Source: Escherichia coli (GTDB lineage: Bacteria; Pseudomonadota; Gammaproteobacteria; Enterobacterales; Enterobacteriaceae). Taken from it: 64,000 nt of DNA. The notes beneath the pieces are model-generated. The model saw nothing but the letters and a program-made list of their open reading frames with translations. It made no database searches and was not told where the DNA came from. The position numbers and the translations under genes are program-made. Position 1 is the first letter of the stretch. Every line of letters starts with the position of its first letter. Shown here piece by piece: positions 95 to 49,564 of this stretch. The stretch lies in assembly GCF_003991155.1 (NCBI RefSeq), contig NZ_CP031293.1; one strand, 5' to 3'.

Positions 95-441
95 AAATTC
101 TCCTGTAAAACGCGGAATATACCGTACCTCTTAGCGGGGAAAAACAGGGTTATGCGGCAACGTCGAAATTAAATGTGATCTGCCACGCCTTTTATCACAA
201 AAGTGTCTCCGGAAGTACGATGCAAATTTGCCTGGCAAAATAAGGATAATCAACATATTACGAATCGCTGCACACCTGTGCTGATGACTACTACGCAGAG
301 AAACAAATGTGCAAGAGAAAGCGCTATTTCTCCCCATGCAAAGAGTGAAAAATCGCTTTGAAAGGCCATCATGATGGGGTTATATCAGATCAAGCGGTGA
401 GAAAGCGTATTTGCACAAATGTGCAGAACCAGGAGGCGGCA

Positions 442-1389
442 ATGGAAAACAGTGACGATATCCGTTTGATTGTGAAGATTGCCCAACTCTATTACGAACA
501 GGATATGACGCAGGCGCAAATCGCGTGCGAACTGGGTATTTACCGCACCACCATCAGCCGCTTGCTTAAACGAGGCCGCGATCAGGGAATTGTCACCATC
601 GCCATCAACTATGACTACAACGAAAATCTCTGGCTGGAGCAGCAACTGAAGCAAAAGTTTGGCCTGAAAGACGTTGTGGTGGTGTCGGGAAATGATGAGG
701 ATGAAGAGACTCAACTGGCGATGATGGGGTTACACGGCGCGCAACTGCTGGATCGCTTGCTGGAGCCTGGCGATATTGTCGGTTTTTCCTGGGGTCGCGC
801 GGTGAGCGCACTGGTTGAAAACTTGCCGCAGGCGGGGCAATCGCGGCAGTTAATCTGCATACCAATTATTGGCGGCCCGTCCGGTAAACTCGAAAGCCGC
901 TATCATGTAAACACATTAACCTACAGCGCGGCAGCGAAGTTGAAAGGGGAATCGCATCTCGCGGATTTTCCGGCTCTACTGGATAACCCCTTAATTCGTA
1001 ATGGGATCATGCAGTCTCAGCACTTTAAAACCATCTCTGCCTACTGGGATAATCTGGATGTCGCCCTGGTGGGAATTGGCTCACCGGCCATTCGCGACGG
1101 CGCTAACTGGCATGCGTTTTATGGTGGTGAAGAGAGTGACGACCTGAATGCCCGCCAGGTTGCTGGCGATATTTGCTCGCGCTTTTTTGATATTCACGGC
1201 GCAATGGTTGAAACGAATATGAGCGAAAAAACACTCTCTATCGAAATGAATAAATTAAAGCAGGCACGATATTCCATTGGCATTGCCATGAGTGAAGAAA
1301 AATACAGCGGAATTGTTGGTGCACTGCGTGGAAAATATATTAATTGTCTGGTAACGAATAGCAGCACAGCTGAACTATTACTGAAATAA
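442..1389 (+). CDS. sorC: SorC-family transcriptional regulator of the L-sorbose operon
   Basis: ORF 358-1389; preferred start ATG 442 (MENSDDIRLIVKIAQ) preceded by AGGAGG; N-terminal HTH plus sugar-phosphate-binding domain; first gene of the sorCDFBAME order. Confidence 0.75.
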   Translation: MENSDDIRLIVKIAQLYYEQDMTQAQIACELGIYRTTISRLLKRGRDQGIVTIAINYDYNENLWLEQQLKQKFGLKDVVVVSGNDEDEETQLAMMGLHGAQLLDRLLEPGDIVGFSWGRAVSALVENLPQAGQSRQLICIPIIGGPSGKLESRYHVNTLTYSAAAKLKGESHLADFPALLDNPLIRNGIMQSQHFKTISAYWDNLDVALVGIGSPAIRDGANWHAFYGGEESDDLNARQVAGDICSRFFDIHGAMVETNMSEKTLSIEMNKLKQARYSIGIAMSEEKYSGIVGALRGKYINCLVTNSSTAELLLK

Positions 1390-1458
1390 AAATCTTCCCG
1401 ATGTTTACCGTAATAAAAATTACGGCGGGTCCCTATTATCTAAAATCAGGAGTCTGTT

Positions 1459-2265
1459 ATGCAAACGTGGTTAAATTTGCAGAATAAAATCATTATTGTC
1501 ACCGGTGGCGCATCCGGCATTGGTCTGGCGATTGTGGATGAATTATTAGCACAAGGCGCGAATGTACAGATGGTCGATATTCACGGTGGCGATGGACAAT
1601 ATGAAGGTCATAAAGGCTATCAGTTTTGGCCGACCGATATTTCCAGCGCCAAAGAGGTAAATCATACGGTAGCAGAAATTATCCAGCGTTTTGGTCGCAT
1701 CGACGGTCTGGTCAATAACGCCGGGGTCAATTTTCCGCGTCTGCTGGTCGATGAGAAAGCGCCTGCCGGGCAGTATGAACTCAACGAAGCGGCATTCGAA
1801 AAAATGGTCAATATCAACCAGAAAGGCGTTTTTCTGATGTCGCAGGCGGTGGCGCGACAGATGGTCAAACAACATGATGGCGTGATTGTGAATGTTTCCT
1901 CAGAAAGTGGGCTGGAAGGCTCAGAAGGCCAAAGCTGTTACGCCGCGACCAAAGCCGCGCTCAATAGCTTCACGCGCTCCTGGTCGAAAGAGCTGGGTAA
2001 GCACGGTATCCGTGTGGTCGGTATCGCGCCGGGGATTCTGGAAAAAACAGGACTGCGCACGCCGGAATATGAAGAAGCGCTGGCTTGGACGCGCAATATC
2101 ACCGTCGAGCAGCTGCGTGAAGGCTATACCAAAAACGCCATTCCTATTGGGCGCGCCGGAAGATTAGCAGAAGTGGCTGATTTTGTTTGTTATCTGCTGT
2201 CTGAACGCGCCAGCTATATCACCGGAGTAACCACTAACATTGCGGGCGGCAAAACGCGCGGCTAA
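1459..2265 (+). CDS. sorD: Short-chain dehydrogenase/reductase, D-glucitol-6-phosphate dehydrogenase SorD-like
   Basis: 268 aa; SDR glycine motif TGGASGIG near N-terminus; SD CAGGAG before ATG; position in sor operon. Confidence 0.75.
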   Translation: MQTWLNLQNKIIIVTGGASGIGLAIVDELLAQGANVQMVDIHGGDGQYEGHKGYQFWPTDISSAKEVNHTVAEIIQRFGRIDGLVNNAGVNFPRLLVDEKAPAGQYELNEAAFEKMVNINQKGVFLMSQAVARQMVKQHDGVIVNVSSESGLEGSEGQSCYAATKAALNSFTRSWSKELGKHGIRVVGIAPGILEKTGLRTPEYEEALAWTRNITVEQLREGYTKNAIPIGRAGRLAEVADFVCYLLSERASYITGVTTNIAGGKTRG

Positions 2266-2274
2266 GGAGGCTTT

Positions 2275-2682
2275 ATGGTCAATGCCATTTTTTGCGCCCA
2301 CGGCAAATTAGCCTGCGCCATGCTGGAATCGGTTCAGATGGTGTACGGCGATGCCAGGGTCGAGGCAGTTGAATTTGTGCCCGGCGAGAACGCCGGAGAC
2401 ATTGTGGCAAAGCTGGAGAAGTTAGTGAGCATTCACAATCATGACGAGTGGCTAATCGCCGTGGATTTACAGTGCGGCAGCCCGTGGAATGCGGCAGCGG
2501 TGCTTGCGATGCGCAATCCTCGTCTGCGGGTAATCAGCGGCCTTTCACTGCCGCTGGCGCTCGAACTGGTTGATAACCAGGACAGCATGAATGTTGATGA
2601 ACTGTGTGAACACCTGACGCAAATCGCAAAGCAATCCTGCGTCGTCTGGAGACAGGTGGCAACGGCAGAGGAGGATTTCTGA
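2275..2682 (+). CDS. sorF: PTS mannose-family EIIA component (sorbose-specific)
   Basis: 135 aa; EIIA-Man-like N-terminus (MVNAIFCAHGKLA); SD AAGGAGG; operon position. Confidence 0.8.
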   Translation: MVNAIFCAHGKLACAMLESVQMVYGDARVEAVEFVPGENAGDIVAKLEKLVSIHNHDEWLIAVDLQCGSPWNAAAVLAMRNPRLRVISGLSLPLALELVDNQDSMNVDELCEHLTQIAKQSCVVWRQVATAEEDF

Positions 2683-3176
2683 TGAACATTACGCTCGCCC
2701 GCATTGATGACCGCCTGATCCACGGTCAGGTCACTACCGTCTGGTCGAAAGTGGCTAACGCCCAGCGCATTATTATCTGCAATGACGAAGTTTATAACGA
2801 TGAAGTTCGCCGGACATTATTGCGTCAGGCTGCGCCACCGGGAATGAAGGTTAACGTGGTCAATATTGAAAAAGCCGTCGCGGTTTATCACAACCCGCAA
2901 TATCAGGACGAAACCGTTTTTTATCTTTTCACTCGCCCACAGGATGCCTTAGCGATGGTTCGCCAGGGGGTAAAAATAGGTACCCTGAATATTGGCGGTA
3001 TGGCCTGGCGTCCTGGTAAAAAACAGTTAACCAAAGCAGTTTCATTAGATGACGATGATATTAACGCATTTCATGAGTTAAATAATCTTGGCGTCATACT
3101 GGATTTACGCGTCGTAGCGTCAGATCCCTCAATCAATATTATCGACAAAATAAACGAACAGTTAATCGCAAATTAA
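2682..3176 (+). CDS. sorB: PTS mannose-family EIIB component (sorbose-specific)
   Basis: 164 aa; EIIB-Man motif RIDDRLIHGQV with phospho-His; start overlaps sorF stop (TGATG). Confidence 0.8.
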   Translation: MNITLARIDDRLIHGQVTTVWSKVANAQRIIICNDEVYNDEVRRTLLRQAAPPGMKVNVVNIEKAVAVYHNPQYQDETVFYLFTRPQDALAMVRQGVKIGTLNIGGMAWRPGKKQLTKAVSLDDDDINAFHELNNLGVILDLRVVASDPSINIIDKINEQLIAN

Positions 3177-3241
3177 ATAATAGCGCCTGTGTACATATGC
3201 TTTAACAGGCAGGGATGACGACACTTAAAAGGTGACAAATC

Positions 3242-4039
3242 ATGGAAATAAGTACCCTACAAATTATTGCTATATTTCTTTTTTCCTGTATTGCCGGAAT
3301 GGGCAGCGTGCTGGATGAATTTCAGACTCATCGTCCGTTAATTGCCTGTACGGTGATTGGTTTAATTCTCGGTGATTTAAAAACCGGAATTATGCTCGGT
3401 GGTACGCTGGAATTGATAGCTCTCGGCTGGATGAACGTCGGCGCGGCGCAATCTCCGGATTCTGCACTCGCCAGCATAATCTCCGCCATTCTGGTTATCG
3501 TTGGTCAGCAAAGCATCGCCACCGGAATCGCCATCGCGTTGCCTGTGGCTGCGGCAGGCCAGGTGCTAACGGTGTTTGCCCGTACCATCACCGTAGTGTT
3601 CCAGCACGCGGCGGATAAAGCAGCGGAAGAAGCACGGTTTCGCACTCTCGATATTCTGCATGTCTCCGCGCTTGGCGTGCAGGCACTGCGCGTTGCTATT
3701 CCGGCACTGATTGTCTCGCTGTTCGTCAGCGCCGATATGGTGAGCAATATGCTGAGCGCCATTCCCGAATTTGTGACCCGTGGACTGCAGATTGCTGGCG
3801 GTTTTATCGTGGTGGTCGGTTACGCCATGGTGCTTCGCATGATGGGCGTGAAATATTTGATGCCTTTCTTTTTCCTCGGTTTCCTCGCAGGTGGCTACCT
3901 CGATCTCAGTCTGCTGGCGTTCGGTGGCGTCGGCGTGATCATGGCCCTGCTCTACATCCAGTTAAATCCACAGTGGCGTAAAGCTGAACCACATCCCCAG
4001 ACCACCACTATCACCGCCCTTGACCAACTTGATGATTAA
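3242..4039 (+). CDS. sorA: PTS mannose-family EIIC membrane component (sorbose-specific)
   Basis: 265 aa, highly hydrophobic multi-TM protein; operon position. Confidence 0.8.
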   Translation: MEISTLQIIAIFLFSCIAGMGSVLDEFQTHRPLIACTVIGLILGDLKTGIMLGGTLELIALGWMNVGAAQSPDSALASIISAILVIVGQQSIATGIAIALPVAAAGQVLTVFARTITVVFQHAADKAAEEARFRTLDILHVSALGVQALRVAIPALIVSLFVSADMVSNMLSAIPEFVTRGLQIAGGFIVVVGYAMVLRMMGVKYLMPFFFLGFLAGGYLDLSLLAFGGVGVIMALLYIQLNPQWRKAEPHPQTTTITALDQLDD

Positions 4040-4049
4040 CGGAGCCATC

Positions 4050-4874
4050 ATGGAACAGAGAAAAATTACACGCAGCGATCTGGTGAGCATGTTTCTGCGC
4101 TCCAACCTGCAACAGGCATCCTTTAACTTTGAACGTATTCACGGGCTGGGTTTTTGCTACGACATGATCCCCGCCATCAAACGACTTTACCCATTAAAAG
4201 AGGATCAGGTTGCGGCGCTCAGGCGACACCTGGTGTTCTTCAATACCACGCCAGCCGTATGTGGCCCGGTCATCGGCGTCACTGCCGCCATGGAAGAGGC
4301 GCGAGCCAACGGCGCGGAAATTGATGACGGTACCATTAACGGCATCAAAGTAGGTCTGATGGGACCATTGGCAGGAGTTGGCGATCCACTGGTCTGGGGA
4401 ACGCTGCGCCCGATTACCGCCGCGCTCGGCGCATCTCTGGCACTTTCGGGCAACATTCTCGGCCCCCTGCTGTTCTTCTTTATTTTCAATGCAGTACGTC
4501 TGGCAATGAAATGGTATGGGCTGCAACTGGGCTTTCGTAAAGGGGTGAATATCGTCAGCGATATGGGCGGTAATTTGCTGCAAAAACTGACCGAAGGCGC
4601 GTCGATTCTCGGGCTGTTTGTAATGGGCGTACTGGTGACCAAATGGACATCGATCAACGTGCCGTTAGTGGTTTCACAAACGCCTGCCGCCGATGGTGCC
4701 ACCGTCACTATGACCGTACAGAACATTCTCGACCAGCTTTGCCCTGGATTGCTGGCGCTCGGTTTGACGCTGCTGATGGTACGTCTGCTCAACAAAAAAA
4801 TTAACCCGGTATGGCTGATTTTCGCCCTGTTTGGTTTAGGGATTATCGGTAATGCGCTGGGCTTCCTGTCCTGA
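4050..4874 (+). CDS. sorM: PTS mannose-family EIID membrane component (sorbose-specific)
   Basis: ORF 4020-4874; preferred start ATG 4050 (MEQRKITRSDL) after ACGGAG; EIID-like hydrophobic protein. Confidence 0.8.
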   Translation: MEQRKITRSDLVSMFLRSNLQQASFNFERIHGLGFCYDMIPAIKRLYPLKEDQVAALRRHLVFFNTTPAVCGPVIGVTAAMEEARANGAEIDDGTINGIKVGLMGPLAGVGDPLVWGTLRPITAALGASLALSGNILGPLLFFFIFNAVRLAMKWYGLQLGFRKGVNIVSDMGGNLLQKLTEGASILGLFVMGVLVTKWTSINVPLVVSQTPAADGATVTMTVQNILDQLCPGLLALGLTLLMVRLLNKKINPVWLIFALFGLGIIGNALGFLS

Positions 4875-4925
4875 TTCTTCGCCCCGGCGCAACCGTCGGG
4901 GCCATCGTTCAACATGAGGTGGTTT

Positions 4926-6155
4926 ATGAAAACAACAGCTCTGCGTCTTTATGGTAAACGTGATTTACGCCTGGAAACCTTTGACCTTCCTGAAATGCAG
5001 GAGGATGAAATCCTCGCAACGGTGGTCACTGACAGCCTGTGCCTCTCTTCCTGGAAAGAGGCCAATCTGGGGGAAAACCATAAAAAAGTACCCGACGATG
5101 TGGCGACCAATCCCATCATCATCGGCCACGAATTTTGCGGCGATATTCTGGCCGTGGGTAAAAAGTGGCAGCACAAATTCCAGCCGGGTCAGCGTTATGT
5201 GATTCAGGCCAACCTGCAACTCCCCGACCGCCCGGACTGCCCCGGCTACTCCTTCCCGTGGGTAGGCGGCGAAGCGACGCATGTGGTTATTCCCAACGAG
5301 GTCATGGAACAAGATTGCCTGCTGGCATACGACGGCGAAACCTATTTTGAAGGCTCGCTGGTTGAACCGCTTTCCTGCGTGATTGGCGCGTTCAACGCCA
5401 ACTATCATCTTCAGGAAGGTAGTTATAACCACACGATGGGGATTCGCCCGCAAGGGCGCACGCTGATCCTCGGCGGCACCGGACCAATGGGACTGTTGGC
5501 GATTGATTATGCGCTACATGGACCCGTTAACCCTTCGCTGCTCGTCATTACCGATACCGACAACGACAAATTGAGTTATGCGCGCAAGCACTATCCATCA
5601 GAACCGCAAACACTGATTCATTATCTCAATGCCACCGATGCAGCATTTGATACGTTAATGGCGCTGAGTGGCGGTCACGGCTTCGATGATATTTTCGTCT
5701 TTGTGCCTAATGAAGGACTGGTGACTCTCGCCTCTTCCTTGCTGGCGACAGATGGTTGCCTGAATTTCTTCGCCGGACCGCAGGATAAGCACTTCAGCGC
5801 GCCAATTAATTTCTACGATGTGCATTATGCATTTACCCACTACGTAGGCACGTCAGGCGGCAATACCGACGACATGCGCGCAGCGGTCAAATTGATTGAA
5901 GAGAAAAAAGTGCAGGCCGCAAAAGTGGTAACACATATTCTTGGGCTGAATGCCGCGGGCGAAACCACGCTTGAATTGCCTGCCGTCGGCGGCGGGAAAA
6001 AACTGGTGTATACCGGGAAATATCTGCCGCTGACATCACTCACGCAGATTCAGGATGAAGAACTGGCGGCGATTCTGGCGCGTCATCAGGGAGTCTGGTC
6101 CGGCGAGGCGGAGCAGTACCTGCTCGCCCATGCAGAGGCGATTTCCCATGATTAA
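4926..6155 (+). CDS. sorE: L-sorbose-1-phosphate reductase, Zn-dependent alcohol dehydrogenase (MDR) family
   Basis: ORF 4914-6155; preferred start ATG 4926 after GAGGTGG; MDR-type motifs (GHEFCG; GGTGPMG nucleotide-binding loop); last sor gene. Confidence 0.7.
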   Translation: MKTTALRLYGKRDLRLETFDLPEMQEDEILATVVTDSLCLSSWKEANLGENHKKVPDDVATNPIIIGHEFCGDILAVGKKWQHKFQPGQRYVIQANLQLPDRPDCPGYSFPWVGGEATHVVIPNEVMEQDCLLAYDGETYFEGSLVEPLSCVIGAFNANYHLQEGSYNHTMGIRPQGRTLILGGTGPMGLLAIDYALHGPVNPSLLVITDTDNDKLSYARKHYPSEPQTLIHYLNATDAAFDTLMALSGGHGFDDIFVFVPNEGLVTLASSLLATDGCLNFFAGPQDKHFSAPINFYDVHYAFTHYVGTSGGNTDDMRAAVKLIEEKKVQAAKVVTHILGLNAAGETTLELPAVGGGKKLVYTGKYLPLTSLTQIQDEELAAILARHQGVWSGEAEQYLLAHAEAISHD

Positions 6156-6960
6156 TCGCGATACTCAACTCTGCATGTCGCTGGCCGGCTGCCCCGGTAA
6201 CTTCGGCACGCGTTTTCACAATTATCTTTATGAAAAGCTGGGGCTGAATTTCATCTATAAAGCGTTCACCACCCAGGATATTGCAGCGGCGGTGAAAGGG
6301 GTTCGCGCGTTGGGTATTCGCGGTTGCGCTGTGTCGATGCCGTTTAAAGAAAGCTGCATGCCTTTTCTCGACGCGATCGATCCGTCGGCGAAGGTCATTG
6401 ATTCCGTGAATACCATCGTGAATGACGACGGCAGGCTGACCGGGTTTAACACCGACTATATCGCGGTGAAAAGCCTGATTACCCACCACCAGCTCAATAC
6501 CACCACGCGAGTGATGATTCGCGGCAGTGGCGGCATGGGCAAAGCGGTGATTGCCGCCTTTCGCGACGCGGGGTTTACGGATGTTATCATTGCCGCCCGC
6601 AACCGCGAGAGCGGCCCGGCGCTGGCGAAGCAGTATGGGTTTCAGTGGCAACCGCAGCCGGAAGGCATCGCCTGCGACATTCTGGTCAACGTGACGCCCG
6701 TTGGCATGAGCGGCGGTAAAGAGAGCCATGAGCTGGCCTTCAGCGAAGCGATGGTCTCAACGGCAAGCGTCGTTTTTGATGTCGTGGCCTTGCCGCCGGA
6801 AACGCCGCTCATTCGCCTGGCGCAACGGCTTGATAAGCAGACGATTAGCGGTGCGGAGGTGATTGCTTTACAGGCCGTCGAGCAGTTCGCAATGTATACC
6901 GGCGTACGGCCTGATGCGCAACTGATTGCTGAGGCGGCACAATTTGCACGAGAAGGATAA
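6148..6960 (+). CDS. Shikimate 5-dehydrogenase-like (AroE/YdiB family) NAD(P)-dependent dehydrogenase, function in this context unknown
   Basis: ORF 6055-6960; preferred start ATG 6148 overlapping sorE stop (ATGATTAA); AroE-like motifs SMPFK and NTDY, glycine-rich GSGGMGKA. Confidence 0.6.
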   Translation: MINRDTQLCMSLAGCPGNFGTRFHNYLYEKLGLNFIYKAFTTQDIAAAVKGVRALGIRGCAVSMPFKESCMPFLDAIDPSAKVIDSVNTIVNDDGRLTGFNTDYIAVKSLITHHQLNTTTRVMIRGSGGMGKAVIAAFRDAGFTDVIIAARNRESGPALAKQYGFQWQPQPEGIACDILVNVTPVGMSGGKESHELAFSEAMVSTASVVFDVVALPPETPLIRLAQRLDKQTISGAEVIALQAVEQFAMYTGVRPDAQLIAEAAQFAREG

Positions 6961-7082
6961 GAAACATCAGCGCCTTGTTTGCCACGCCAGAAGCAATGCG
7001 CAACATCGTGAGCCATGTCAGTAAGCGGTTAAAATCACAGTGGTAGCATGGCTCCCGTGATTTCTTACTAACCGGAGAAGTA

Positions 7083-7861: not shown

Positions 7862-9493
7862 TTAATACTCGTCCCGTCCTTCGTCTTCATCCGGCTGTTC
7901 CAGCACACTGTAAGCCACCGAACAAAACAGCGAGTTCAGACGCTGCATATCTCCCAGTAAGCCTAAATGTAGCGAACTGGTTTCAATGCTTTGCACGTTT
8001 TGCTGATGCAGGCGATCGACGTGAGCATGGGAATAACGGCGATTAAGAATGCGAAAGCGATGCTTGCTGCGGCGCAAACGACGGGCGCTGGTAACATCGC
8101 CAGAGAAGAAAACCGACATTGCCAGTTTTAAATTACTGAGCAATTGCTCATAGAGCGCATCCAGTTCCTTCAAGCCATCAAGCGAAAATGCCCGCCGTGC
8201 TGCCAGCGATTTATCGGCAATTTCGCTCCCCATGCGCTCGACGATATCGGAGGCCTGTTCAAGGTTGAGCGACATTTCGATGATCTCCGCCCAGCGGCGC
8301 GACTCTTCCTCCGCCAGCTCTTCTTTTGGCATCCGCGCCAGATACAGCTTAATGGCGGTATAGAGAACGTTGATATCATCTGCCAGCTTACGCAGCTCTT
8401 TCTCCTGCCGTGGCTCGCCGTGCATCACTTTATTCAGCCCTTCCATCATCTGTTCCATGGCGTCGCCAATGCGCAGGGTTTCGCGCGCGGCGTTCGCCAG
8501 AGCAAGCGTGGGCGTATCCAGCGCGCTGACATCCAGATGTTTGGGTCGTAGCTGGGTATCCAGTTCCGGTTCATCGCGAATAATCGTTTTGCAAAACCGT
8601 GCCATCGGGTCAACAAATGGCAGCATGACCAGGCAGCGTACAAGGTTGTAGAAGACGTGGAAATAGATCACCAGTTCCGCTTTTGGCAGTGGCAACTTCC
8701 CCATTGTCTCTGCCAGCAAATGGACAAACGGCAGGATAATCAGGCTACCCACCAGCTTAAACAGCAGGCTACCCAGCGCGACACGGCGGGCTGCGGCATT
8801 GGCGGCACTGTTGTTGAGCATCGCCAGCAGACCGGAACCGAGGTTAGCACCAATCACCAGACAGAGCGCCACGGGGAAGGAGATAATGCCTGCGGCGGTC
8901 AGAGTCGCGGTCAGCAGTACAGCAGCAAGGCTGGAGTAGCTGATAATGGCGAACATCGCGCCAATCAGCGCATCCAGCAGAATATCGCCGGTCAGCGAGG
9001 CAAAGATCACCTGAACGCCGTTTGCCTGGGTGATCGGCGTTACGGCCTGCACAATCAACTCCAGCGCCAGCAAAATCAGCCCAAGACCAATACCGACGCG
9101 GCCCAGTTGCCCGGCGCGTGACTGTTTGCGTCCGAGGAAAAAAATCACGCCGATAAAAATAAGTAACGGTGACAGCCAGGATAAGTCGAAGGTGAGAATA
9201 CGCGCCATTAGCGCCGTCCCGACATCTGCACCCAGCACAATCACCAGAGCCGGTGCGAGGGCTACCAGATCCTGAGCGACAAACGAGGTCACCAGCATGG
9301 TGGTGGCATTACTGCTCTGCACCAGTGCGGTAACGCCTATCCCCGCGCAAAAGGCGAGCGGCTTCTTTTCGACGCTTCGGCTAAGAACAGTACGCAGACG
9401 CGCGCCGAAGACGCGCATTACGCCGGTTCGAACAATATGAGTCCCCCAGACCAGCAGGGCGACGGCAGAAAGCAGGTGAAGCAAAGTTAGCAC
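7862..9493 (-). CDS. yjbB: Na+/phosphate symporter-like inner membrane protein (PhoU-domain containing)
   Basis: 543 aa; GTG start with GGAGAA upstream; multi-TM N-terminal half plus charged PhoU-like C-terminal half. Confidence 0.85.
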   Translation of the reverse strand: MLTLLHLLSAVALLVWGTHIVRTGVMRVFGARLRTVLSRSVEKKPLAFCAGIGVTALVQSSNATTMLVTSFVAQDLVALAPALVIVLGADVGTALMARILTFDLSWLSPLLIFIGVIFFLGRKQSRAGQLGRVGIGLGLILLALELIVQAVTPITQANGVQVIFASLTGDILLDALIGAMFAIISYSSLAAVLLTATLTAAGIISFPVALCLVIGANLGSGLLAMLNNSAANAAARRVALGSLLFKLVGSLIILPFVHLLAETMGKLPLPKAELVIYFHVFYNLVRCLVMLPFVDPMARFCKTIIRDEPELDTQLRPKHLDVSALDTPTLALANAARETLRIGDAMEQMMEGLNKVMHGEPRQEKELRKLADDINVLYTAIKLYLARMPKEELAEEESRRWAEIIEMSLNLEQASDIVERMGSEIADKSLAARRAFSLDGLKELDALYEQLLSNLKLAMSVFFSGDVTSARRLRRSKHRFRILNRRYSHAHVDRLHQQNVQSIETSSLHLGLLGDMQRLNSLFCSVAYSVLEQPDEDEGRDEY

Positions 9494-10535: not shown

Positions 10536-14219
<3,684 letters not shown>

Positions 14220-14382
14220 ACTTGCTCCCGACACGCTCAACCCAGATTTAATAAAAATTCAACAAACCATACTGGCATAAACGCATCTGTGGTAAAAGCA
14301 ACCACTACCCAACATGAGATTTGTTCAACATTAACTCATCGGATCAGTTCAGCAACTATTGCATTAGCTAACAATAAAAATG

Positions 14383-14400
14383 AAAATGATTTCCACGATA
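14383..14400 (+). promoter_or_regulatory. Candidate IclR autoregulatory operator in iclR promoter
   Basis: gaaaatgatttccacg resembles the IclR box; located about 20-35 nt upstream of iclR ATG. Confidence 0.4.
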
Positions 14401-14418
14401 CAGAAAAAGGAGACTGTC

Positions 14419-15243
14419 ATGGTCGCACCCATTCCCGCGAAACGCGGCAGAAAACCCGCCGTTGCCACCGCACCAGCGACTGGGCAGGTTCAGTCTTTAA
14501 CGCGTGGCCTGAAATTACTGGAGTGGATTGCCGAATCCAATGGCAGTGTGGCACTCACGGAGCTGGCGCAACAAGCTGGGTTACCCAATTCCACGACCCA
14601 CCGCCTGCTAACCACGATGCAACAGCAGGGTTTCGTGCGTCAGGTTGGCGAACTGGGACACTGGGCAATCGGCGCACATGCCTTTATGGTCGGCAGCAGC
14701 TTTCTCCAGAGCCGTAATTTGTTAGCAATTGTTCACCCTATCCTGCGCAATCTAATGGAAGAGTCTGGCGAAACGGTCAATATGGCGGTGCTTGATCAAA
14801 GCGATCATGAAGCGATTATTATCGACCAGGTACAGTGTACCCACCTGATGCGAATGTCCGCGCCTATCGGCGGTAAATTACCTATGCACGCTTCCGGTGC
14901 GGGTAAAGCCTTTTTAGCCCAACTGAGCGAAGAACAGGTGACGAAGCTGCTGCACCGCAAAGGGTTACATGCCTATACCCACGCAACGCTGGTGTCTCCT
15001 GTGCATTTAAAAGAAGATCTCGCCCAAACGCGCAAACGGGGTTATTCATTTGACGATGAGGAACATGCGCTGGGGCTACGTTGCCTTGCAGCGTGTATTT
15101 TCGATGAGCACCGTGAACCGTTTGCCGCAATTTCTATTTCCGGACCGATTTCACGTATTACCGATGACCGCGTGACCGAGTTTGGCGCGATGGTGATTAA
15201 AGCGGCGAAGGAAGTGACGCTGGCGTACGGTGGAATGCGCTGA
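14419..15243 (+). CDS. iclR: Glyoxylate-bypass repressor IclR
   Basis: ORF 14380-15243; start ATG 14419 (MVAPIPAKRGRKPA) after AAGGAG; 274 aa. Confidence 0.9.
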   Translation: MVAPIPAKRGRKPAVATAPATGQVQSLTRGLKLLEWIAESNGSVALTELAQQAGLPNSTTHRLLTTMQQQGFVRQVGELGHWAIGAHAFMVGSSFLQSRNLLAIVHPILRNLMEESGETVNMAVLDQSDHEAIIIDQVQCTHLMRMSAPIGGKLPMHASGAGKAFLAQLSEEQVTKLLHRKGLHAYTHATLVSPVHLKEDLAQTRKRGYSFDDEEHALGLRCLAACIFDEHREPFAAISISGPISRITDDRVTEFGAMVIKAAKEVTLAYGGMR

Positions 15244-15259
15244 CTTTTTCGCCTCTGAT

Positions 15260-16984
<1,725 letters not shown>

Positions 16985-16989
16985 TTAGC

Positions 16990-17165
16990 GCCCTCATCAG
17001 GAGCAGAGAATTGCCGGATGCGGCGTAAACGCCTTATCCAGCCTACGTTCGGCAACGGTTGTAGGCATGATAAGACGCGCAAGCGTCGCATCAGGCATCG
17101 TGCACCGATTGCCGGATGCGGCGTAAATGCCTTATCCGGCCTACAGTCAGCAACGTTTGTAGGTT
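16990..17165. repeat. BIME/REP cluster between aceA and aceK
   Basis: Two copies of gccggatgcggcgtaaacgccttatccggcctac-type palindromic units. Confidence 0.75.
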
Positions 17166-17167
17166 GC

Positions 17168-18472
17168 TTAGAACTGCGATTCTTCAGTGGAGCCAGTCAG
17201 TGCGGTAACCGACGACGTGCCGCCCTGAATAATGGTCGTCACTTTATCGAAGTAACCTGTACCCACTTCCTGCTGGTGAGATACGAAGGTATAGCCATCT
17301 TTCGCGGCGGCAAATTCCGGCTGCTGCACTTTCTCAACATAGTGCTTCATACCCTCGCCCTGGGCATAGGCGTTTGCCAGGTCAAACATGTTGAACCACA
17401 TGCTGTGGATACCTGCCAGGGTGATGAACTGGAACTTGTAGCCCATATCCGACAGCTGCTGCTGGAAGCTGGCAATAGTTTTGTCGTCGAGGTTTTTCTG
17501 CCAGTTGAACGACGGCGAGCAGTTATAAGCCAGCAGTTTGCCCGGATATTTCGCGTGGATGGCTTGTGCAAAGCGACGTGCCAGTTCCAGATCCGGCGTG
17601 GAGGTTTCACACCATACCAGGTCAGCATATGGCGCATACGCCAGGCCACGGCTGATTGCTTGTTCAATACCTGCATGAGTACGGAAGAAGCCTTCGCTGG
17701 TACGCTCGCCGGTAATAAATTCGCTGTCATATGGGTCGCAATCGGAGGTAATCAGATCCGCCGCATCGGCATCGGTACGAGCAACCAGCAGGGTTGGAAC
17801 GCCCGTCACGTCAGCTGCCAGACGCGCCGCGACCAGTTTCTGAATAGCTTCCTGAGTTGGCACTAAAACTTTGCCGCCCATGTGACCGCATTTCTTCACT
17901 GATGCCAGCTGATCTTCGAAGTGAACTGCCGCTGCACCGGCTTCAATCATCGCTTTCATCAGTTCAAAGGCATTCAGGACACCGCCAAAACCGGCTTCCG
18001 CATCGGCAACGATCGGCAGGAAGTAATCGACATAGCGCGGATCGCCCGGCTCAATGCCTGCGGACCATTGGATCTGATCCGCACGGCGGAAGGTGTTGTT
18101 GATCCGCTCCACCACAGCTGGCACCGAGTTTGCCGGATAGAGCGACTGATCCGGATACATGCTGGCCGCCAGGTTAGCGTCCGCCGCTACCTGCCATCCC
18201 GACAGATAGACTGCTTCAATACCCGCTTTCGCCTGTTGCAGCGCCTGACCGCCAGTCAGTGCACCGAGGCTGTTGATGTAGCCTTTTTTCGACTCGCCGT
18301 GCAGCAGACGCCACATTTTCGCCGCACCCAGTTGCGCCAGCGTGCATTCAGGATTGACTGAACCGCGTAATTTCACCACATCTTCCGCGTTGTACGGGCG
18401 AGTAATGCCTTCCCAACGCGGTTGAGTCCACTCTTTCTGTAATTCTTCAATTTGTTGTGTACGGGTTTTCAT
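17168..18472 (-). CDS. aceA: Isocitrate lyase
   Basis: ORF 17168-18487; start ATG 18472 ([15 protein letters not shown]), 434 aa. Confidence 0.95.
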
Positions 18473-18501
18473 GTGCAGATGCTCCATAGTTATGTGGTGG
18501 T

Positions 18502-20103
18502 TTACGCTAACAGGCGGTAGCCTGGCAGGGTCAGGAAATCAATTAACTCATCGGAAGTGGTGATCTGTTCCATCAAACGTGCGGCATCGTCAAAACGCCC
18601 CTGGGAGAAACGTTCTTCGCCCAGTTCGCTGGCAATGACTTTCATCTCTTCGCCCAGCATCTGGCGGAACAAGGCTTTGGTCACCGGTTTGCCATTGCTC
18701 AACGTTTTTTGATGATGGATCCACTGCCAGATTGAGGTACGGGAAATTTCAGCCGTCGCCGCATCTTCCATCAGGCCATAAATCGGCACACAGCCGTTGC
18801 CAGAGATCCACGCTTCGATGTACTGCACAGCCACGCGAATGTTGGCGCGCATACCTTCTTCGGTGCGTTCACCATCACAAGGTGCCAGCAGCTGATCGGC
18901 AGTAATCGGCGCGTCTTGTTCGCGCATCACTTCAAGCTGATTTTTACGGGAGCCGAGAATGTCGTTGAATACCGCCATTGCCGTATCCGCAAGGCCTGGG
19001 TGGGCAATCCATGTGCCATCGTGACCGTTATTAGCTTCCAGCGATTTATCCGCTTTTACTTTGTTGAGCACCTGGTTATTGCGCTCTTCATCTTTGCTCG
19101 GAATAAATGCCGCCATACCGCCCATCGCAAAAGCACCGCGTTTATGGCAGGTTTTAATCAACAGGCGTGAGTAAGCATTCAGGAAGGGTTTATCCATCTT
19201 CACTGCCTGTCTATCTGGCAGGACGCGATCGGGATAGTTTTTCAACGTTTTGATATAACTGAAGATGTAATCCCAACGACCGCAGTTCAGACCAACAATA
19301 TGGTCACGCAGCGCGTGAAGGATTTCGTCCATCTGGAACACGGCGGGCAGCGTTTCAATCAGCAACGTCGCCTTGATGGTGCCGCGCGGCAGATTAAAGC
19401 GATCTTCTGCATAGCTGAAGACTTCGCTCCACCAGGCCGCTTCCTGCCAGGACTGGGTTTTCGGCAGATAGAAATAGGGACCGCTGCCCTTTGCCAACAG
19501 TGCCTGATAGTTGTGGAAGAAATAGAGCGCAAAATCAAACAGGCTACCGGGGATTGCCTCACCACGCCAGGTGACATGTTTTTCCGGCAAGTGCAGACCA
19601 CGTACCCGACAAATCAACACCGCTGGATTGGGCTTGAGCTGATAAATTTTGCCTGCTTCATTGGTATAGCTGATGGTGCCGTTAACCGCATCGCGCAGGT
19701 TAATTTGCCCGTCGATCACTTTGTTCCAGTCCGGGGCCAGTGAATCTTCGAAATCGGCCATAAAGACTTTCACATTGGCGTTGAGCGCGTTGATCACCAT
19801 CTTGCGCTCAACCGGGCCAGTTATCTCGACTCGACGATCTTGTAAGTCCGCGGGAATACCACGAATTTTCCAGTCAGCATCACGAATGGAAGCTGTTTCC
19901 GAAATAAAATCAGGCAACGTTCCGTTATCGATATCCTGCTGCTGCTGAATGCGCGCTGCCAGAAGTTTATTGCGTTGTGGCGTAAAATGCGTCACCAGCT
20001 CAGTCAGAAATTCTACCGCTTCGGCAGTAAGAATTTGCTTCTCCTGCTCGCCATACGGCCTTATGAAAGCCAGTTCATCGGTTGTTGTTGCCTGTTCAGT
20101 CAT
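18502..20103 (-). CDS. aceB: Malate synthase A
   Basis: ORF 18502-20121; start ATG 20103 ([13 protein letters not shown]), 533 aa. Confidence 0.95.
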
Positions 20104-20371: not shown

Positions 20372-21301
20372 TTAATCCAGCGTTGGATTCATGTGCCGTA
20401 GATCGTATGGCGTGATCTGGTAGACGTAATAGTTGAGCCAGTTGGTAAACAGCAAATTACCGTGACTACGCCAGCTCGCTCGCGGTTTGTTTTGCGGATC
20501 ATTGTGCGGGAAATAGTTATACGGTACTTCCGGGTCTAGTCCGGCTTCCACATCGCGGAAATATTCCTGCGCCAGCGTTTGCGCATCATATTCGGGATGG
20601 CCCGTCACAAAGGCAATGCGCTTATCTTTGCTGGCAAACAGATATGCATCCCCTTCTTCCGTCTCTGCCAGAATTTCCAGATCGGTGTAATCACGAATCA
20701 ACGCTGCCGGAAAGTCAGCATAGCGCGAATGCGGTGCCAGGAATGAATCATCAAAGCCACGCGTCAGAAGCGCATGAGGATGGAGAATATGATGCTCGTA
20801 AACGCCAGAGAGTTTGTCGGTGCGAGTTTGCTTAGGAATGCCGTAGAGGATATTTAGCGCGGCCTGTACCGCCCAGCAGACAAACAGCGTCGAGGTGACG
20901 TGATCTTTCGACCACTCCAGCACCTGTTTGATCTGCGGCCAGTAAGCGACATCATTAAACTCCACCAGGCCCAGCGGCGCGCCGGTAACTATCAGACCGT
21001 CAAAGTTTTGTTCCTGAATATCTTCAAAGTTACAGTAGAAGTTATTCAGATGCTCTGCGGGCGTGTTGCGCGATTCACGGGAATCAATGCGCAACAGCTG
21101 AATATCGACCTGCAAAGGTGAGTTTGAAAGCAGGCGCAGAAACTGATTTTCAGTTTCGATCTTCTTCGGCATCAGGTTAAGGATAAGTACCTTTAGCGGA
21201 CGAATTTCCTGACCAGACGCACGAGAAGTTGTCATCACAAAGACGTTTTCTTCACGCAAGAAATTGACGGCGGGTAGCTCGTCCGGCACACGAATCGGCA
21301 T
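20372..21301 (-). CDS. metA: Homoserine O-succinyltransferase
   Basis: 309 aa; [24 protein letters not shown]-terminus. Confidence 0.95.
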
Positions 21302-21457: not shown

Positions 21458-21901
21458 ATGGTTATTAGTATTCGCCGCTCACGGCATGAGGAAGGGGAGG
21501 AACTCGTTGCGATTTGGTGTCGTTCTGTCGATGCCACTCACGATTTTTTATCAGCAGAGTATCGGGCCGAGCTGGAGGAGCTAGTTCGTTCCTTCTTGCC
21601 GGAAGCGCCGTTGTGGGTCGCGGTTAATGAGCGGGATCGGCTGGTTGGGTTTATGTTGTTAAGTGGGCAGCATATGGATGCGCTTTTTGTCGATCCTGAT
21701 GCGCGCGGTTGTGGCGTGGGCCGGATGCTGGTGGAACATGCGCTCTCGATGGCACCGGAACTGACAACCAATGTTAATGAGCAAAATAAGCAGGCTGTTG
21801 GGTTCTATAAGAAGATGGGTTTTAAGGTTACGGGACGCTCTGAGGTGGACGATTTGGGGAAACCGTATCCATTGCTGAATCTGGCATATGTGGGGGAATA
21901 A
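21458..21901 (+). CDS. yjaB: GNAT-family N-acetyltransferase
   Basis: 147 aa; GNAT acetyl-CoA motif region (ARGCGVGRMLVEHA); position between metA and rrnE. Confidence 0.8.
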   Translation: MVISIRRSRHEEGEELVAIWCRSVDATHDFLSAEYRAELEELVRSFLPEAPLWVAVNERDRLVGFMLLSGQHMDALFVDPDARGCGVGRMLVEHALSMAPELTTNVNEQNKQAVGFYKKMGFKVTGRSEVDDLGKPYPLLNLAYVGE

Positions 21902-21979
21902 GCTGCCCCCTATCGTGCTATCGTGCCTGCGTAAGCTGGAGCAGACGCGCCAGCGTCGCAGCCGGCCGTTTTCTGCACC

Positions 21980-22012
21980 AGCGCAAAAAGGCCATCCTGA
22001 CGGATGGCCTTC
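21980..22012 (-). terminator. rrn operon terminator (T1-like)
   Basis: Minus-strand hairpin AGGCCATCCGTCAGGATGGCCT followed by TTTTTGCG just downstream of the 5S gene. Confidence 0.7.
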
Positions 22013-22023
22013 TGCTAAATTTG

Positions 22024-22143
22024 ATGCCTGGCAGTTCCCTACTCTCGCATGGGGAGACCCCACACTACCATCGGCGCTACGGCGTTTCACTTCTGAGTTC
22101 GGCATGGGGTCAGGTGGGACCACCGCGCTAAGGCCGCCAGGCA
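22024..22143 (-). rRNA. rrfE: 5S ribosomal RNA
   Basis: Reverse complement matches the E. coli 5S sequence (UGCCUGGCGGCC...GGGAACUGCCAGGCAU) with one difference near position 13 (U instead of G). Confidence 0.95.
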
Positions 22144-22235: not shown

Positions 22236-25142
<2,907 letters not shown>

Positions 25143-25325: not shown

Positions 25326-25401
25326 TGGCGTCCCCTAGGGGATTCGAACCCCTGTTACCGCCGTGAAAGGGCGGTGTCCTGGGCCTCTAGACGAAGGGGA
25401 C
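25326..25401 (-). tRNA. gltV: tRNA-Glu (UUC) in rRNA spacer
   Basis: Reverse complement is GTCCCCTTCGTCTAGAGGCCCAGGACACCGCCCTTTCACGGCGGTAACAGGGGTTCGAATCCCCTAGGGGACGCCA. Confidence 0.95.
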
Positions 25402-25486: not shown

Positions 25487-27028
<1,542 letters not shown>

Positions 27029-29245: not shown

Positions 29246-30535
29246 ATGAAAGTATTAGTGATCGGTAATGGCGGGCGCGAGCACGCGCTGGCCTGGAAAG
29301 CGGCGCAGTCGCCGCTGGTTGAAACTGTTTTTGTTGCTCCGGGTAACGCAGGCACTGCGCTGGAACCTGCACTGCAAAACGTCGATATCGGCGTAACCGA
29401 TATCCCGGCGCTGCTGGATTTCGCACAAAACGAAAAGGTAGATCTAACCATCGTCGGCCCGGAAGCGCCGCTGGTGAAAGGCGTGGTTGACACCTTCCGC
29501 GCCGCCGGGCTGAAAATCTTCGGCCCAACCGCAGGTGCGGCCCAACTGGAAGGCTCAAAAGCGTTTACCAAAGATTTCCTGGCCCGCCATAAGATCCCTA
29601 CGGCGGAATACCAGAACTTCACCGAGGTAGAACCTGCGCTGGCGTATCTGCGTGAGAAAGGCGCGCCAATCGTCATTAAAGCTGACGGTCTGGCTGCCGG
29701 GAAAGGCGTTATCGTGGCGATGACGCAGGAAGAAGCGGAAGCGGCTGTTCACGATATGCTGGCGGGCAACGCTTTTGGCGACGCGGGGCATCGCATCGTT
29801 ATCGAAGAGTTCCTCGACGGCGAAGAAGCGAGCTTTATCGTGATGGTGGACGGTGAGCATGTGCTGCCGATGGCCACCAGCCAGGATCACAAACGCGTAG
29901 GCGATAAAGATACCGGGCCGAACACCGGCGGGATGGGCGCTTACTCCCCTGCGCCAGTAGTGACCGATGAGGTTCATCAGCGCACGATGGAACGAATCAT
30001 CTGGCCAACCGTGAAAGGCATGGCGGCAGAAGGCAACACCTACACTGGTTTTCTCTACGCGGGCCTGATGATCGACAAACAGGGCAATCCGAAGGTTATT
30101 GAATTTAACTGCCGCTTTGGCGATCCAGAAACCCAACCGATTATGCTGCGCATGAAGTCCGATCTGGTTGAACTCTGCCTGGCAGCCTGTGAAGGCAAGC
30201 TGGACGAGAAAACGTCCGAGTGGGATGAACGCGCTTCTCTCGGCGTGGTGATGGCTGCGGGTGGATATCCGGGCGATTACCGCACCGGCGATGTGATCCA
30301 CGGCCTGCCGCTGGAAGAAGTGTCTGACGGCAAAGTGTTCCACGCGGGCACGAAACTGGCGGATGACGAGCAGGTAGTGACCAGCGGCGGGCGCGTACTG
30401 TGCGTCACCGCGCTGGGTCATACCGTGGCAGAAGCGCAGAAACGCGCTTATGCCTTAATGACCGATATCCATTGGGACGACTGCTTCTGCCGGAAAGATA
30501 TCGGCTGGCGCGCTATCGAACGCGAGCAGAACTAA
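29246..30535 (+). CDS. purD: Phosphoribosylamine-glycine ligase
   Basis: 429 aa; ATP-grasp; MKVLVIGNGGREHALAWK N-terminus. Confidence 0.95.
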   Translation: MKVLVIGNGGREHALAWKAAQSPLVETVFVAPGNAGTALEPALQNVDIGVTDIPALLDFAQNEKVDLTIVGPEAPLVKGVVDTFRAAGLKIFGPTAGAAQLEGSKAFTKDFLARHKIPTAEYQNFTEVEPALAYLREKGAPIVIKADGLAAGKGVIVAMTQEEAEAAVHDMLAGNAFGDAGHRIVIEEFLDGEEASFIVMVDGEHVLPMATSQDHKRVGDKDTGPNTGGMGAYSPAPVVTDEVHQRTMERIIWPTVKGMAAEGNTYTGFLYAGLMIDKQGNPKVIEFNCRFGDPETQPIMLRMKSDLVELCLAACEGKLDEKTSEWDERASLGVVMAAGGYPGDYRTGDVIHGLPLEEVSDGKVFHAGTKLADDEQVVTSGGRVLCVTALGHTVAEAQKRAYALMTDIHWDDCFCRKDIGWRAIEREQN

Positions 30536-31857
30536 CGCGACAGTTTTGCCAAGAGCGTTTTGCGCGTGATCCCTAACTGACGGGCGGCTTCGGTTTTGTT
30601 GCCGCCCGTTTTCTCCAGTGCCGCAAGAATCACCTCTTTTTCGACTTCCACCAGCGGCTGAATATCCTGACTTTGTACCAGCGGGATCGGCGTACTCGCA
30701 ATCGCCAGCGGCAGCTCGCGTTCGGAAATATATTCCCCGGTCAGCAGCACCACCGCCCGTTCCACCGCGTTTTCCAGTTCACGAATATTTCCCGGCCAGT
30801 CGTAGTGAATCAGCAGATCCATCGCCTGGGGCGTAAAACCTTTTACCGCCTTGCGATTACGCTCGGCAAAGCGCTGAAGAAAATGGTTTGCCAGCAGAGG
30901 AATATCTTCCCGCCGCTGACGCAGCGACGGAACTTCAATCGCCACCACGTTCAGGCGATAGTAGAGATCCTGGCGAAAACGCCCGGCATTCACCTCTGCG
31001 GCAAGATCGCGATGAGTCGCCGCAATCAGCCGGACATCAACCGAGATGGTCTGGTTGCTGCCGACACGCTGAACTTCGCGCTCCTGAATCGCACGCAGCA
31101 GACGAACCTGCATCATCGGCGAGATATCGCCAATTTCATCGAGAAACAGCGTGCCGCCGTCCGCCTCAACAAAGCGCCCTTCCCGCCGTTTGTCGGCTCC
31201 GGTAAACGCCCCTTTTTCGTGACCGAACAATTCAGATTCCAGCAAGGATTCGTTGAGTGCCGCACAGTTGAGCGTTACCAGTGGTTTTTCACTCCGTGCG
31301 CTACTGGCGTGAATCGCCCTGGCGACCAGCTCTTTACCGGTGCCGGAATCGCCGTGGATCAGCACTGTGGCTTCCGATGGCGCGACGAGGGCGATTTCAC
31401 TGAGCAGGTGTTGCATCGCCGGGCTTTTACCGACCATACCGAACTGGCTGGCAGACACCGCAGGCGTTTCAGCGTCAATACTGTGCGTATGCGCGAGCGC
31501 CTTTTCCAGCGTCGCCTGCAGGTTATCGAAATCCAGCGGCTTGATGAGATAATCCAGCGCCCCGGTTTTCAACGCCTCTACCGCCGTCTCGACGCTGGAG
31601 TACGCGGTCATAATCAGTACCGGAATTGCCGGATTTAACGCTTTGATCTCTTTGAGCGTGGCGATGCCGTCCATCTCTGCCATTCGCACATCGCAAAGCA
31701 CAAGATCAAAAACCTGTTCCCGCACCTGCTCCAGCGCCTGTCGCCCGCTGTTCGCCAGCGCGACGTTATAGCCCCAGCCGCGCAGCAAAGCCTGCAAAAT
31801 AGTGCAGTGGCTAATGTCATCATCCACCACCAGAATATCGATATTATCGTGCGTCAT
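30532..31857 (-). CDS. zraR: Sigma54-dependent two-component response regulator ZraR (HydG)
   Basis: 441 aa; receiver domain, AAA+ sigma54-activator motifs (GESGTGKE, GAFTGA) and C-terminal HTH. Confidence 0.9.
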
Positions 31858-44735: not shown

Positions 44736-45386
44736 ATGGTCCAGAACATCATGTCAGCTTACCTAAAAAAAGCGTTATCGATTCATAGTGATGAATTTCG
44801 CCCATACGGAAACGTAATTTCTGCAATAAATGTAGATTCATTGCTTAAATACCTTAAAGAGGAAATTTCTGTACCTGAGGATCAGGTGGCATATGTCAGA
44901 AGCGATGAGCGCTTAAAGCAATACCCCGCCGTGAGCGACATTCAGCGCCAAATCTACGGTGGAATGCCCGTTCAGGCTGGGTACGTTTGTGGGGTAAATA
45001 CCACCCAGGATGGCTTTGAATATCACCAGGGAAGTGAAGTCATTATCGCCGCCAGCGATTTTTTCCTGTTTTTAGGTAAACGAGAGTTGATGCAGGGTGA
45101 CACGTTTAATGGTGAACGTGCAGAGCCGTTTTTCATTCCGGCAAAATCGGTGATTGAACTTTATAGCACAACGCTACATTACTGCCCTATGAGTATCAAT
45201 GCACAACCTTTTAGTGCAGCGATTATTCTTCTTGATGGAACTAATGAAGATATTGATGGCAAGAATAAACCAACAATATTAAGCAAGCGAAATACCTGGT
45301 TTATCGCCCATGAAAGTTTCACTGAGCATCCTTGCCCATTATTAAAAGGGCCGCATCTTTGCGTGAATGATATTATTCATGGGTGA
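44736..45386 (+). CDS. Cupin-fold protein of unknown function (accessory)
   Basis: 216 aa; cupin-like motifs (G..EYHQGSEV..., ...TTLHYCP...); AT-rich; alternative start ATG 44751 (MSAYLKK); no strong SD. Confidence 0.45.
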   Translation: MVQNIMSAYLKKALSIHSDEFRPYGNVISAINVDSLLKYLKEEISVPEDQVAYVRSDERLKQYPAVSDIQRQIYGGMPVQAGYVCGVNTTQDGFEYHQGSEVIIAASDFFLFLGKRELMQGDTFNGERAEPFFIPAKSVIELYSTTLHYCPMSINAQPFSAAIILLDGTNEDIDGKNKPTILSKRNTWFIAHESFTEHPCPLLKGPHLCVNDIIHG

Positions 45387-45390
45387 AAAT

Positions 45391-45410
45391 GGCGAAGATT
45401 TCTCTTCGCC
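45391..45410. terminator. Bidirectional hairpin terminator between convergent genes
   Basis: GGCGAAGA-tttc-TCTTCGCC perfect stem with T-rich flanks on both strands, between stops at 45386 and 45417. Confidence 0.5.
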
Positions 45411-45416
45411 TGTTCT

Positions 45417-49563: not shown

Positions 49564-49564
49564 T

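Follow-up and report, generated by a model that had tools for sequence, protein, structure and literature searches.

Organization of the yjaB-rrfE and iclR-aceK junctions

Across the window (the whole stretch of 64,000 bases analysed here), the genes run in the order metH, iclR, aceK, aceA and aceB, metA, yjaB, the rrnE operon on the minus strand, and purH. Two junctions in this order, iclR-aceK and yjaB-rrfE, are the places at which K-12 carries the phylotyping marker genes arpA and yjaA. The features around them are as follows, with the evidence in brackets.

10536-14240, minus strand: metH
14419-15243, plus strand: iclR, with its stop at 15243 (open reading frame)
15244-15259: empty arpA site at the iclR/aceK junction, 16 bp between convergent genes (open reading frames; tblastn of IclR, AceK and ArpA)
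15260-16984, minus strand: aceK, with its stop at 15260 (open reading frame)
15639-15658, minus strand: AceK.f primer site of the Clermont arpA PCR (in-silico PCR)
20372-21301, minus strand: metA
21458-21901, plus strand: yjaB, a GNAT acetyltransferase of 147 aa (list of open reading frames; NCBIfam PRK10514, 3.7e-82; PGAP annotation of CREC-544; allele alignment)
21902-22025: yjaB-rrfE spacer, 124 bp, without yjaA (sequence; homologous spacers in O157:H7 and O111)
21910-21925: 8-bp tandem duplication, two copies of CTATCGTG (read from the sequence and compared with O157:H7)
21935-21967, minus strand: degenerate REP-like palindrome, GCCGGCTGCGACGCTGGCGCGTCTGCTCCAGC on the minus strand
21985-22012, minus strand: rrnE intrinsic terminator, stem GGCCAUCC / GGAUGGCC, loop GUCA, then UUUUU
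22026-22141, minus strand: rrfE, the 5S rRNA gene and last gene of rrnE (Rfam gathering-threshold matches; PGAP annotation)
22236-25141, minus strand: 23S rRNA gene of rrnE (Rfam; PGAP)
25329-25401, minus strand: tRNA-Glu gene of rrnE (Rfam; PGAP)
25487-27028, minus strand: 16S rRNA gene of rrnE (Rfam; PGAP)

The yjaB reading frame closes with a TAA stop at 21899-21901 and its product ends in ...VGE*, whereas the yjaA-carrying allele ends in ...VGA* according to the allele alignment. Since a mature 5S rRNA of 120 nt would end at about 22024, the spacer measures 122-124 bp. The initial annotation had reported yjaA as missing at 21902-22023, and both the absence and the coordinates were borne out, the latter to within 2 bases (21901 is the last base of yjaB, and the annotation of 5S runs from 22026). 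No yjaA open reading frame and no tblastn match to K-12 YjaA was found in the whole 64 kb (best E-value 3.5), and neither yjaA primer found a site in the window by in-silico PCR, for which the K-12 control gave the 211-bp product. The K-12 gene order given in that annotation, with yjaA between the rrnE 5S gene and yjaB, is the one present in MG1655 (NC_000913.3), which reads rrfE-yjaA-yjaB-metA with yjaA as b4011 (384 bp); a second K-12 record agrees.

The spacer had also been described as mostly terminator hairpin, which needs correction: the hairpin takes up only about 28 of the 124 bp, and the remainder consists of the REP-like palindrome, the 8-bp duplication and a linker. Duplication of CTATCGTG explains the extra bases of the window relative to the 116-bp spacer of O157:H7. 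The 18-nt core of the palindrome has a copy with one mismatch at 17073-17090 (chance expectation, 0.13 matches), which is the REP between aceA and aceK that Rfam names naRNA4. When the minus-strand RNA of the spacer was folded (-58.6 kcal/mol, z = -3.8), the palindrome formed the second hairpin. A consensus terminator scanner flagged nothing on the minus strand of the spacer, although the fold gives a clear hairpin followed by a U-run; the scanner probably missed the rrnE terminator because flanking A-U pairs were absorbed into the stem.

The second marker, arpA, had likewise been reported as missing, and this too was confirmed. K-12 holds a 2,187-bp arpA at the junction where iclR and aceK of the window are separated by 16 bp, and ArpA gave no tblastn match in the window. 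Using published Clermont primer sequences (PMC7656184), we found no ArpA1.r site in the window and hence obtained no arpA amplicon, while the K-12 control yielded the 400-bp product. None of the outgroup loci that reached both iclR and aceK carried arpA between them.

Elsewhere in the window, rluF and pepE flank a sorbose-type PTS operon (358-7016), which comprises a regulator, an SDR oxidoreductase, PTS IIA, IIB, IIC and IID components, sorE and a shikimate-dehydrogenase-like gene. This operon is presumably lacking between rluF and pepE in K-12.

Relationship to ST457 and phylogroup F

Comparison with complete genomes placed the window close to a single clone. The chromosome of CREC-544 (NZ_CP024826.1), typed as ST457 (PMC5884925), differs from the window by 3 mismatches in 64,000 bases, and AR13438 (NZ_CP097170.1), also published as ST457, shows 100% identity to the window across the 24.4 kb compared. 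Identity of at least 99% along a 24.4-kb stretch of the window was seen in about 43 complete genomes, and the window may derive from one of them. ST457 has been described as a phylogroup F clone (PMC9780897), and one ST457 isolate was assigned to F by Clermont PCR (PMC6448934).

Core-gene identity, calculated from the genes of the window only and against a reference set without B2, D or G members, was 97.17% for K-12, 98.85% for IAI39 and 99.04% for CFSAN061771, and fell to 94.82% for Escherichia sp. E1V33 and 92.67% for E. whittamii. CFSAN061771 (ST1485, phylogroup F; PMC9630279) was considered as the source lineage, as it is 100% identical on the 851-bp junction, but it reaches only 98.8-99.2% over the wider region and was set aside as a related F strain. 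ST117 (phylogroup G), a guess from the poultry-rich hosts, was dropped because the published type is ST457. One further genome, LWY24 (NZ_CP054556.1), matches the window at 100% identity along 24.4 kb (27600-52000) and has the F-type island described below, yet is published as ST93, while the other genomes identical to the window are ST457 where a type has been published; this could reflect a typing discrepancy or a recombinant region.

The island in question occupies about 6 kb of the window (44736-50782) between thiH and rpoC, and encodes a DUF4867 protein, a hypothetical protein of 884 aa, a purine-cytosine permease and an rbsK-like kinase; at the same position K-12 has yjaZ and the sRNA sroH. 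Only 49 of the 5,426 complete E. coli genomes have it, ST457 strains, IAI39 and CE10 among them, and it appears to be restricted to part of phylogroup F. IAI39 and CE10 are strains that we take to be phylogroup F references.

Clermont markers within and beyond the window

We examined how common the marker states are among the 5,426 complete E. coli genomes by megablast, for which absence means that no copy above about 85% identity was found. The yjaA sequence was present in 2,594 genomes and missing from 2,832 (52%), and arpA sequence was present in 4,109. Neither marker nor the island was found in 220 genomes; together with the 49 island-bearing genomes, the double-negative pattern thus amounts to about 269 genomes (5%). 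Absence of yjaA alone is therefore the majority state, and the double absence is confined to a minority, which is what phylogroups F and G would be expected to show. The marker pattern had been called unusual in the initial annotation, a description that suits the combination of the two absences but not the lack of yjaA by itself.

Markers that lie outside the window were sought in its near relatives. For this purpose, chimeric queries were built from 2 kb of the island (46000-48000) joined to a marker, and the matching places were counted in each genome, K-12 or other genomes serving as positive controls. The 49 island-bearing genomes comprise those identical to the window plus IAI39 and CE10; CREC-544 and AR13438 are among the 49. 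With yjaA and arpA from K-12 as the query, all 49 showed one matching place and no marker, and K-12 strains showed two. It had been allowed that yjaA might sit at another locus; within the same detection limit, none of these genomes, CREC-544 among them, carries it elsewhere. The TspE4.C2 amplicon sequence, obtained from metagenome contigs via the primer pair, likewise gave matches to the island only in 49 of 49 genomes, and was found inside an alpha/beta hydrolase gene in 2,673 other genomes.

In CREC-544, chuA is annotated at 4647786-4649768, between dctR and yhiD in the acid-fitness island, and the Clermont chuA primers gave a 288-bp in-silico amplicon. The same acid-fitness island, which lies outside the window, contains a gadX that an IS1B insertion has disrupted and that is annotated as a pseudogene (positions 29444-31044 of our locus L010).

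The G-specific PCR targets a ybgD allele (177 bp). Presence or absence of a K-12-like ybgD was considered as a test for G and rejected, as ybgD of K-12 has the primer sites with 4 and 1 mismatches and the PCR is thus allele-specific. No ybgOPQD operon occurs between abrB and gltA in CREC-544, YbgD has no tblastn match there, and no ybgD primer site with up to 2 mismatches was found in the 243 kb of the CREC-544 chromosome examined. Where K-12 has the ybgOPQD fimbrial operon, CREC-544 has an unrelated eight-gene cluster between abrB and gltA (positions 11186-18991 of locus L041), with genes for a GntR regulator, an RraA-family protein, two dehydrogenases, UxaA-family hydrolases and a TRAP transporter.

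Taken together, the genotype is arpA-, chuA+, yjaA-, TspE4.C2-, ybgD-, which is the F profile (- + - -), with the markers outside the window read from near-identical genomes. We infer that the source of the window matches CREC-544 beyond the 64 kb and is itself chuA+, TspE4.C2- and ybgD-, given the 3 mismatches in 64,000 bases. In the literature, the phylogroup F genotype is defined by chuA as the only positive marker (PMC10145502).

Ancestry of the yjaA-less spacer

The yjaA-less spacers of O157:H7 (phylogroup E) and O111 (phylogroup B1) align with that of the window over their whole length in a six-strain alignment. We extended this comparison with a scan for a degenerate pattern of the yjaB 3' end, taking one genome per species, which returned 16 loci; E. 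albertii, E. fergusonii, E. marmotae and E. ruysiae fall outside this set, and the polarity thus rests on two non-coli Escherichia species and more distant genera. Escherichia sp. E1V33 has a short spacer like that of the window, running into the 5S gene, and has neither yjaA nor arpA. A contig of MOD1-EC7003 carries the same spacer sequence and stops inside the terminator hairpin. In Pseudocitrobacter, Citrobacter, Salmonella, Klebsiella and Pluralibacter, the 5S gene follows within 100-280 bp of yjaB, with no yjaA, and all of these genera except Pluralibacter have a REP-type palindrome plus a GGCCATCC or GCCCATCC hairpin. The rrn terminator stem is the same in Pseudocitrobacter and E1V33, and a near-identical GCCCATCC version is found in Salmonella, Citrobacter and Klebsiella; the outgroup REPs are canonical GCCGGATAAGGCG...CATCCGGC versions. 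In total, yjaA was found at none of the nine loci from other genera and the one E1V33 locus that span yjaB to 5S, and five further outgroup contigs, which end 22-135 bp from yjaB, gave no YjaA match.

E. whittamii is the only outgroup carrying yjaA. In strain Sa2BVA5, the segment that runs from the metA 5' end to rrf (about 13000-14545 of locus L026) is 97-100% identical to K-12 (7944-9140 of locus L002), with a YjaA protein that is 100% identical, whereas the adjacent aceK-aceA-aceB genes are only 90-94% identical to K-12. This contrast suggests that the yjaA segment of E. whittamii was imported by recombination between species.

The two states also differ in more than the gene itself. The yjaA-bearing allele (K-12; 8603-9124 of locus L002) has a different rrnE terminator hairpin, CCCCGGCC...GGACCGGGG, and the last two codons of its yjaB are changed. 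Judged from these sequences, the yjaA polymorphism is an allele replacement cassette and not a clean insertion or deletion.

A separate length variant was seen at the spacer in some E. coli and in Salmonella diarizonae, with an extra piece of about 160 bp (EBJ003, an E. coli, 700-985 of locus L005; S. diarizonae, about 8410-8680 of locus L025). It starts as a repeat of the 5S 3' end, finishes in an rrnB-T1-like terminator, and looks like what is left of a distal tRNA or 5S unit.

Interpretation and alternative explanations

The window very probably comes from an ordinary phylogroup F E. coli, in or next to ST457, that has kept the ancestral form at both the yjaA and the arpA sites. Under this explanation, the direct succession of yjaB, a REP-like element and the rrnE terminator would be the ancestral, uninserted form, as would iclR and aceK abutting each other, and yjaA would be an accessory cassette gained by some Escherichia lineages. 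Such a cassette would replace the ancestral spacer, bring in another terminator hairpin and alter the last two yjaB codons. Because the short spacer is common to O157:H7, O111, other Escherichia and other genera, we infer that yjaA was inserted in some lineages and that the yjaA-less spacer is the ancestral state and not a deletion.

The opposite direction of change, in which the phylogroup F lineage once had yjaA and lost it by a deletion that left a scar, appears improbable. It could draw on a two-sequence MAFFT alignment that spreads bits of the spacer along the 3' part of K-12 yjaA, and on the presence of yjaA in the non-coli species E. whittamii. The apparent matches were rejected as scattering of gaps, since the six-strain alignment and the outgroups show an independent, conserved allele, common to O157:H7, O111 and the window and having its own terminator hairpin; neither yjaA remnants nor a K-12-type terminator was found at the junction of the window. 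E1V33, Pseudocitrobacter, Citrobacter, Salmonella and Klebsiella share the REP-plus-hairpin design between yjaB and 5S, which also argues against a deletion, and the E. whittamii cassette, which is 97-100% identical to K-12 in a locus otherwise at 90-94%, looks imported. Collapse of the assembly beside the repeated rrn operon would produce an artefactual gap of the same appearance, given that such operons often break or confuse assemblies and that several outgroup contigs end at the yjaB-rrf point; this is extremely improbable, as the identical junction recurs in dozens of independently finished genomes and a yjaA-less junction of the same design occurs in about half of the complete E. coli genomes.

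Two further alternatives concern the identity of the source. The initial annotation had offered either phylogroup F or a cryptic or sister Escherichia lineage; near-identity to ST457 genomes and the marker profile favour the former, and core-gene identity speaks against the latter. Although the arpA-/yjaA- pattern also occurs in Escherichia sp. E1V33, core-gene identity was 97.2% for K-12 versus 92.7% for E. whittamii and 94.8% for E1V33, which, with a species range of roughly 5% divergence, rules out a cryptic clade. The window is moreover only 3 of 64,000 bases away from an E. coli ST457 chromosome, and 5,425 of the 5,426 E. coli genomes match a 24-kb stretch of it, all but ten at 95% or more (best-matching piece). 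On these sequence comparisons, the window is E. coli proper, and we give a cryptic clade or sister species next to no weight. A source in phylogroup G, or an atypical yjaA-negative B2, is a little less far-fetched but still improbable, and slightly more so than a deletion of yjaA. The quadruplex pattern of G equals that of F, B2 also lacks arpA, and the references compared directly included no G or B2 strain; against this, ST457 is consistently reported as F, TspE4.C2 is missing, the ybgD locus of CREC-544 is occupied by another gene cluster, and IAI39 and CE10, which we take to be F references, also have the 6-kb island.

With an ordinary phylogroup F source as the preferred explanation, the yjaA-positive state deserves a comment of its own. 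It is conceivable, although we lean slightly against it, that this state represents a single cassette (yjaA, a new terminator and an altered yjaB C-terminus) that has moved by homologous recombination of metA-yjaB-rrfE from one phylogroup to another, and even between species; the E. whittamii locus, with a near-identical K-12-type cassette amid sequence of 90-94% identity, points that way. In that case, yjaA as a Clermont marker would follow a recombining allele and not vertical descent; this would concern other genomes, the window having the ancestral allele.

Both the yjaA/arpA polymorphism and the ST457 phylogroup F lineage are already known, and nothing here is new in that respect. The standard Clermont phylotyping PCR is built on the presence or absence of yjaA and arpA, and the result matters little beyond the placement of the window. 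What has been gained is that the phylogroup call is confirmed, the idea of a cryptic species is removed, and the 'absence' of yjaA can be understood as an ancestral layout common to other enterobacterial genera.

Comparison with known systems

Set against the Clermont quadruplex (arpA, chuA, yjaA, TspE4.C2), the genotype shows no difference from the phylogroup F profile - + - -, and the case is a textbook use of the scheme. CREC-544 has the same yjaB-rrfE spacer, iclR-aceK junction and 6-kb island as the window, and nothing of substance differs between the two. K-12 MG1655 shares the flanking genes and their order, but differs from the window in having the yjaA cassette, a different terminator, the VGA* ending of yjaB, and arpA. 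The same design is seen in O157:H7, O111, E1V33 and other Enterobacteriaceae, in which the yjaB stop is followed, as in the window, by a REP-type palindrome, a GGCCATCC/GCCCATCC hairpin and the 5S gene. Compared with these yjaA-less spacers, the window is distinguished by its 8-bp duplication and a more decayed REP, whereas in the other genera the REP copies are longer or there are additional ones.
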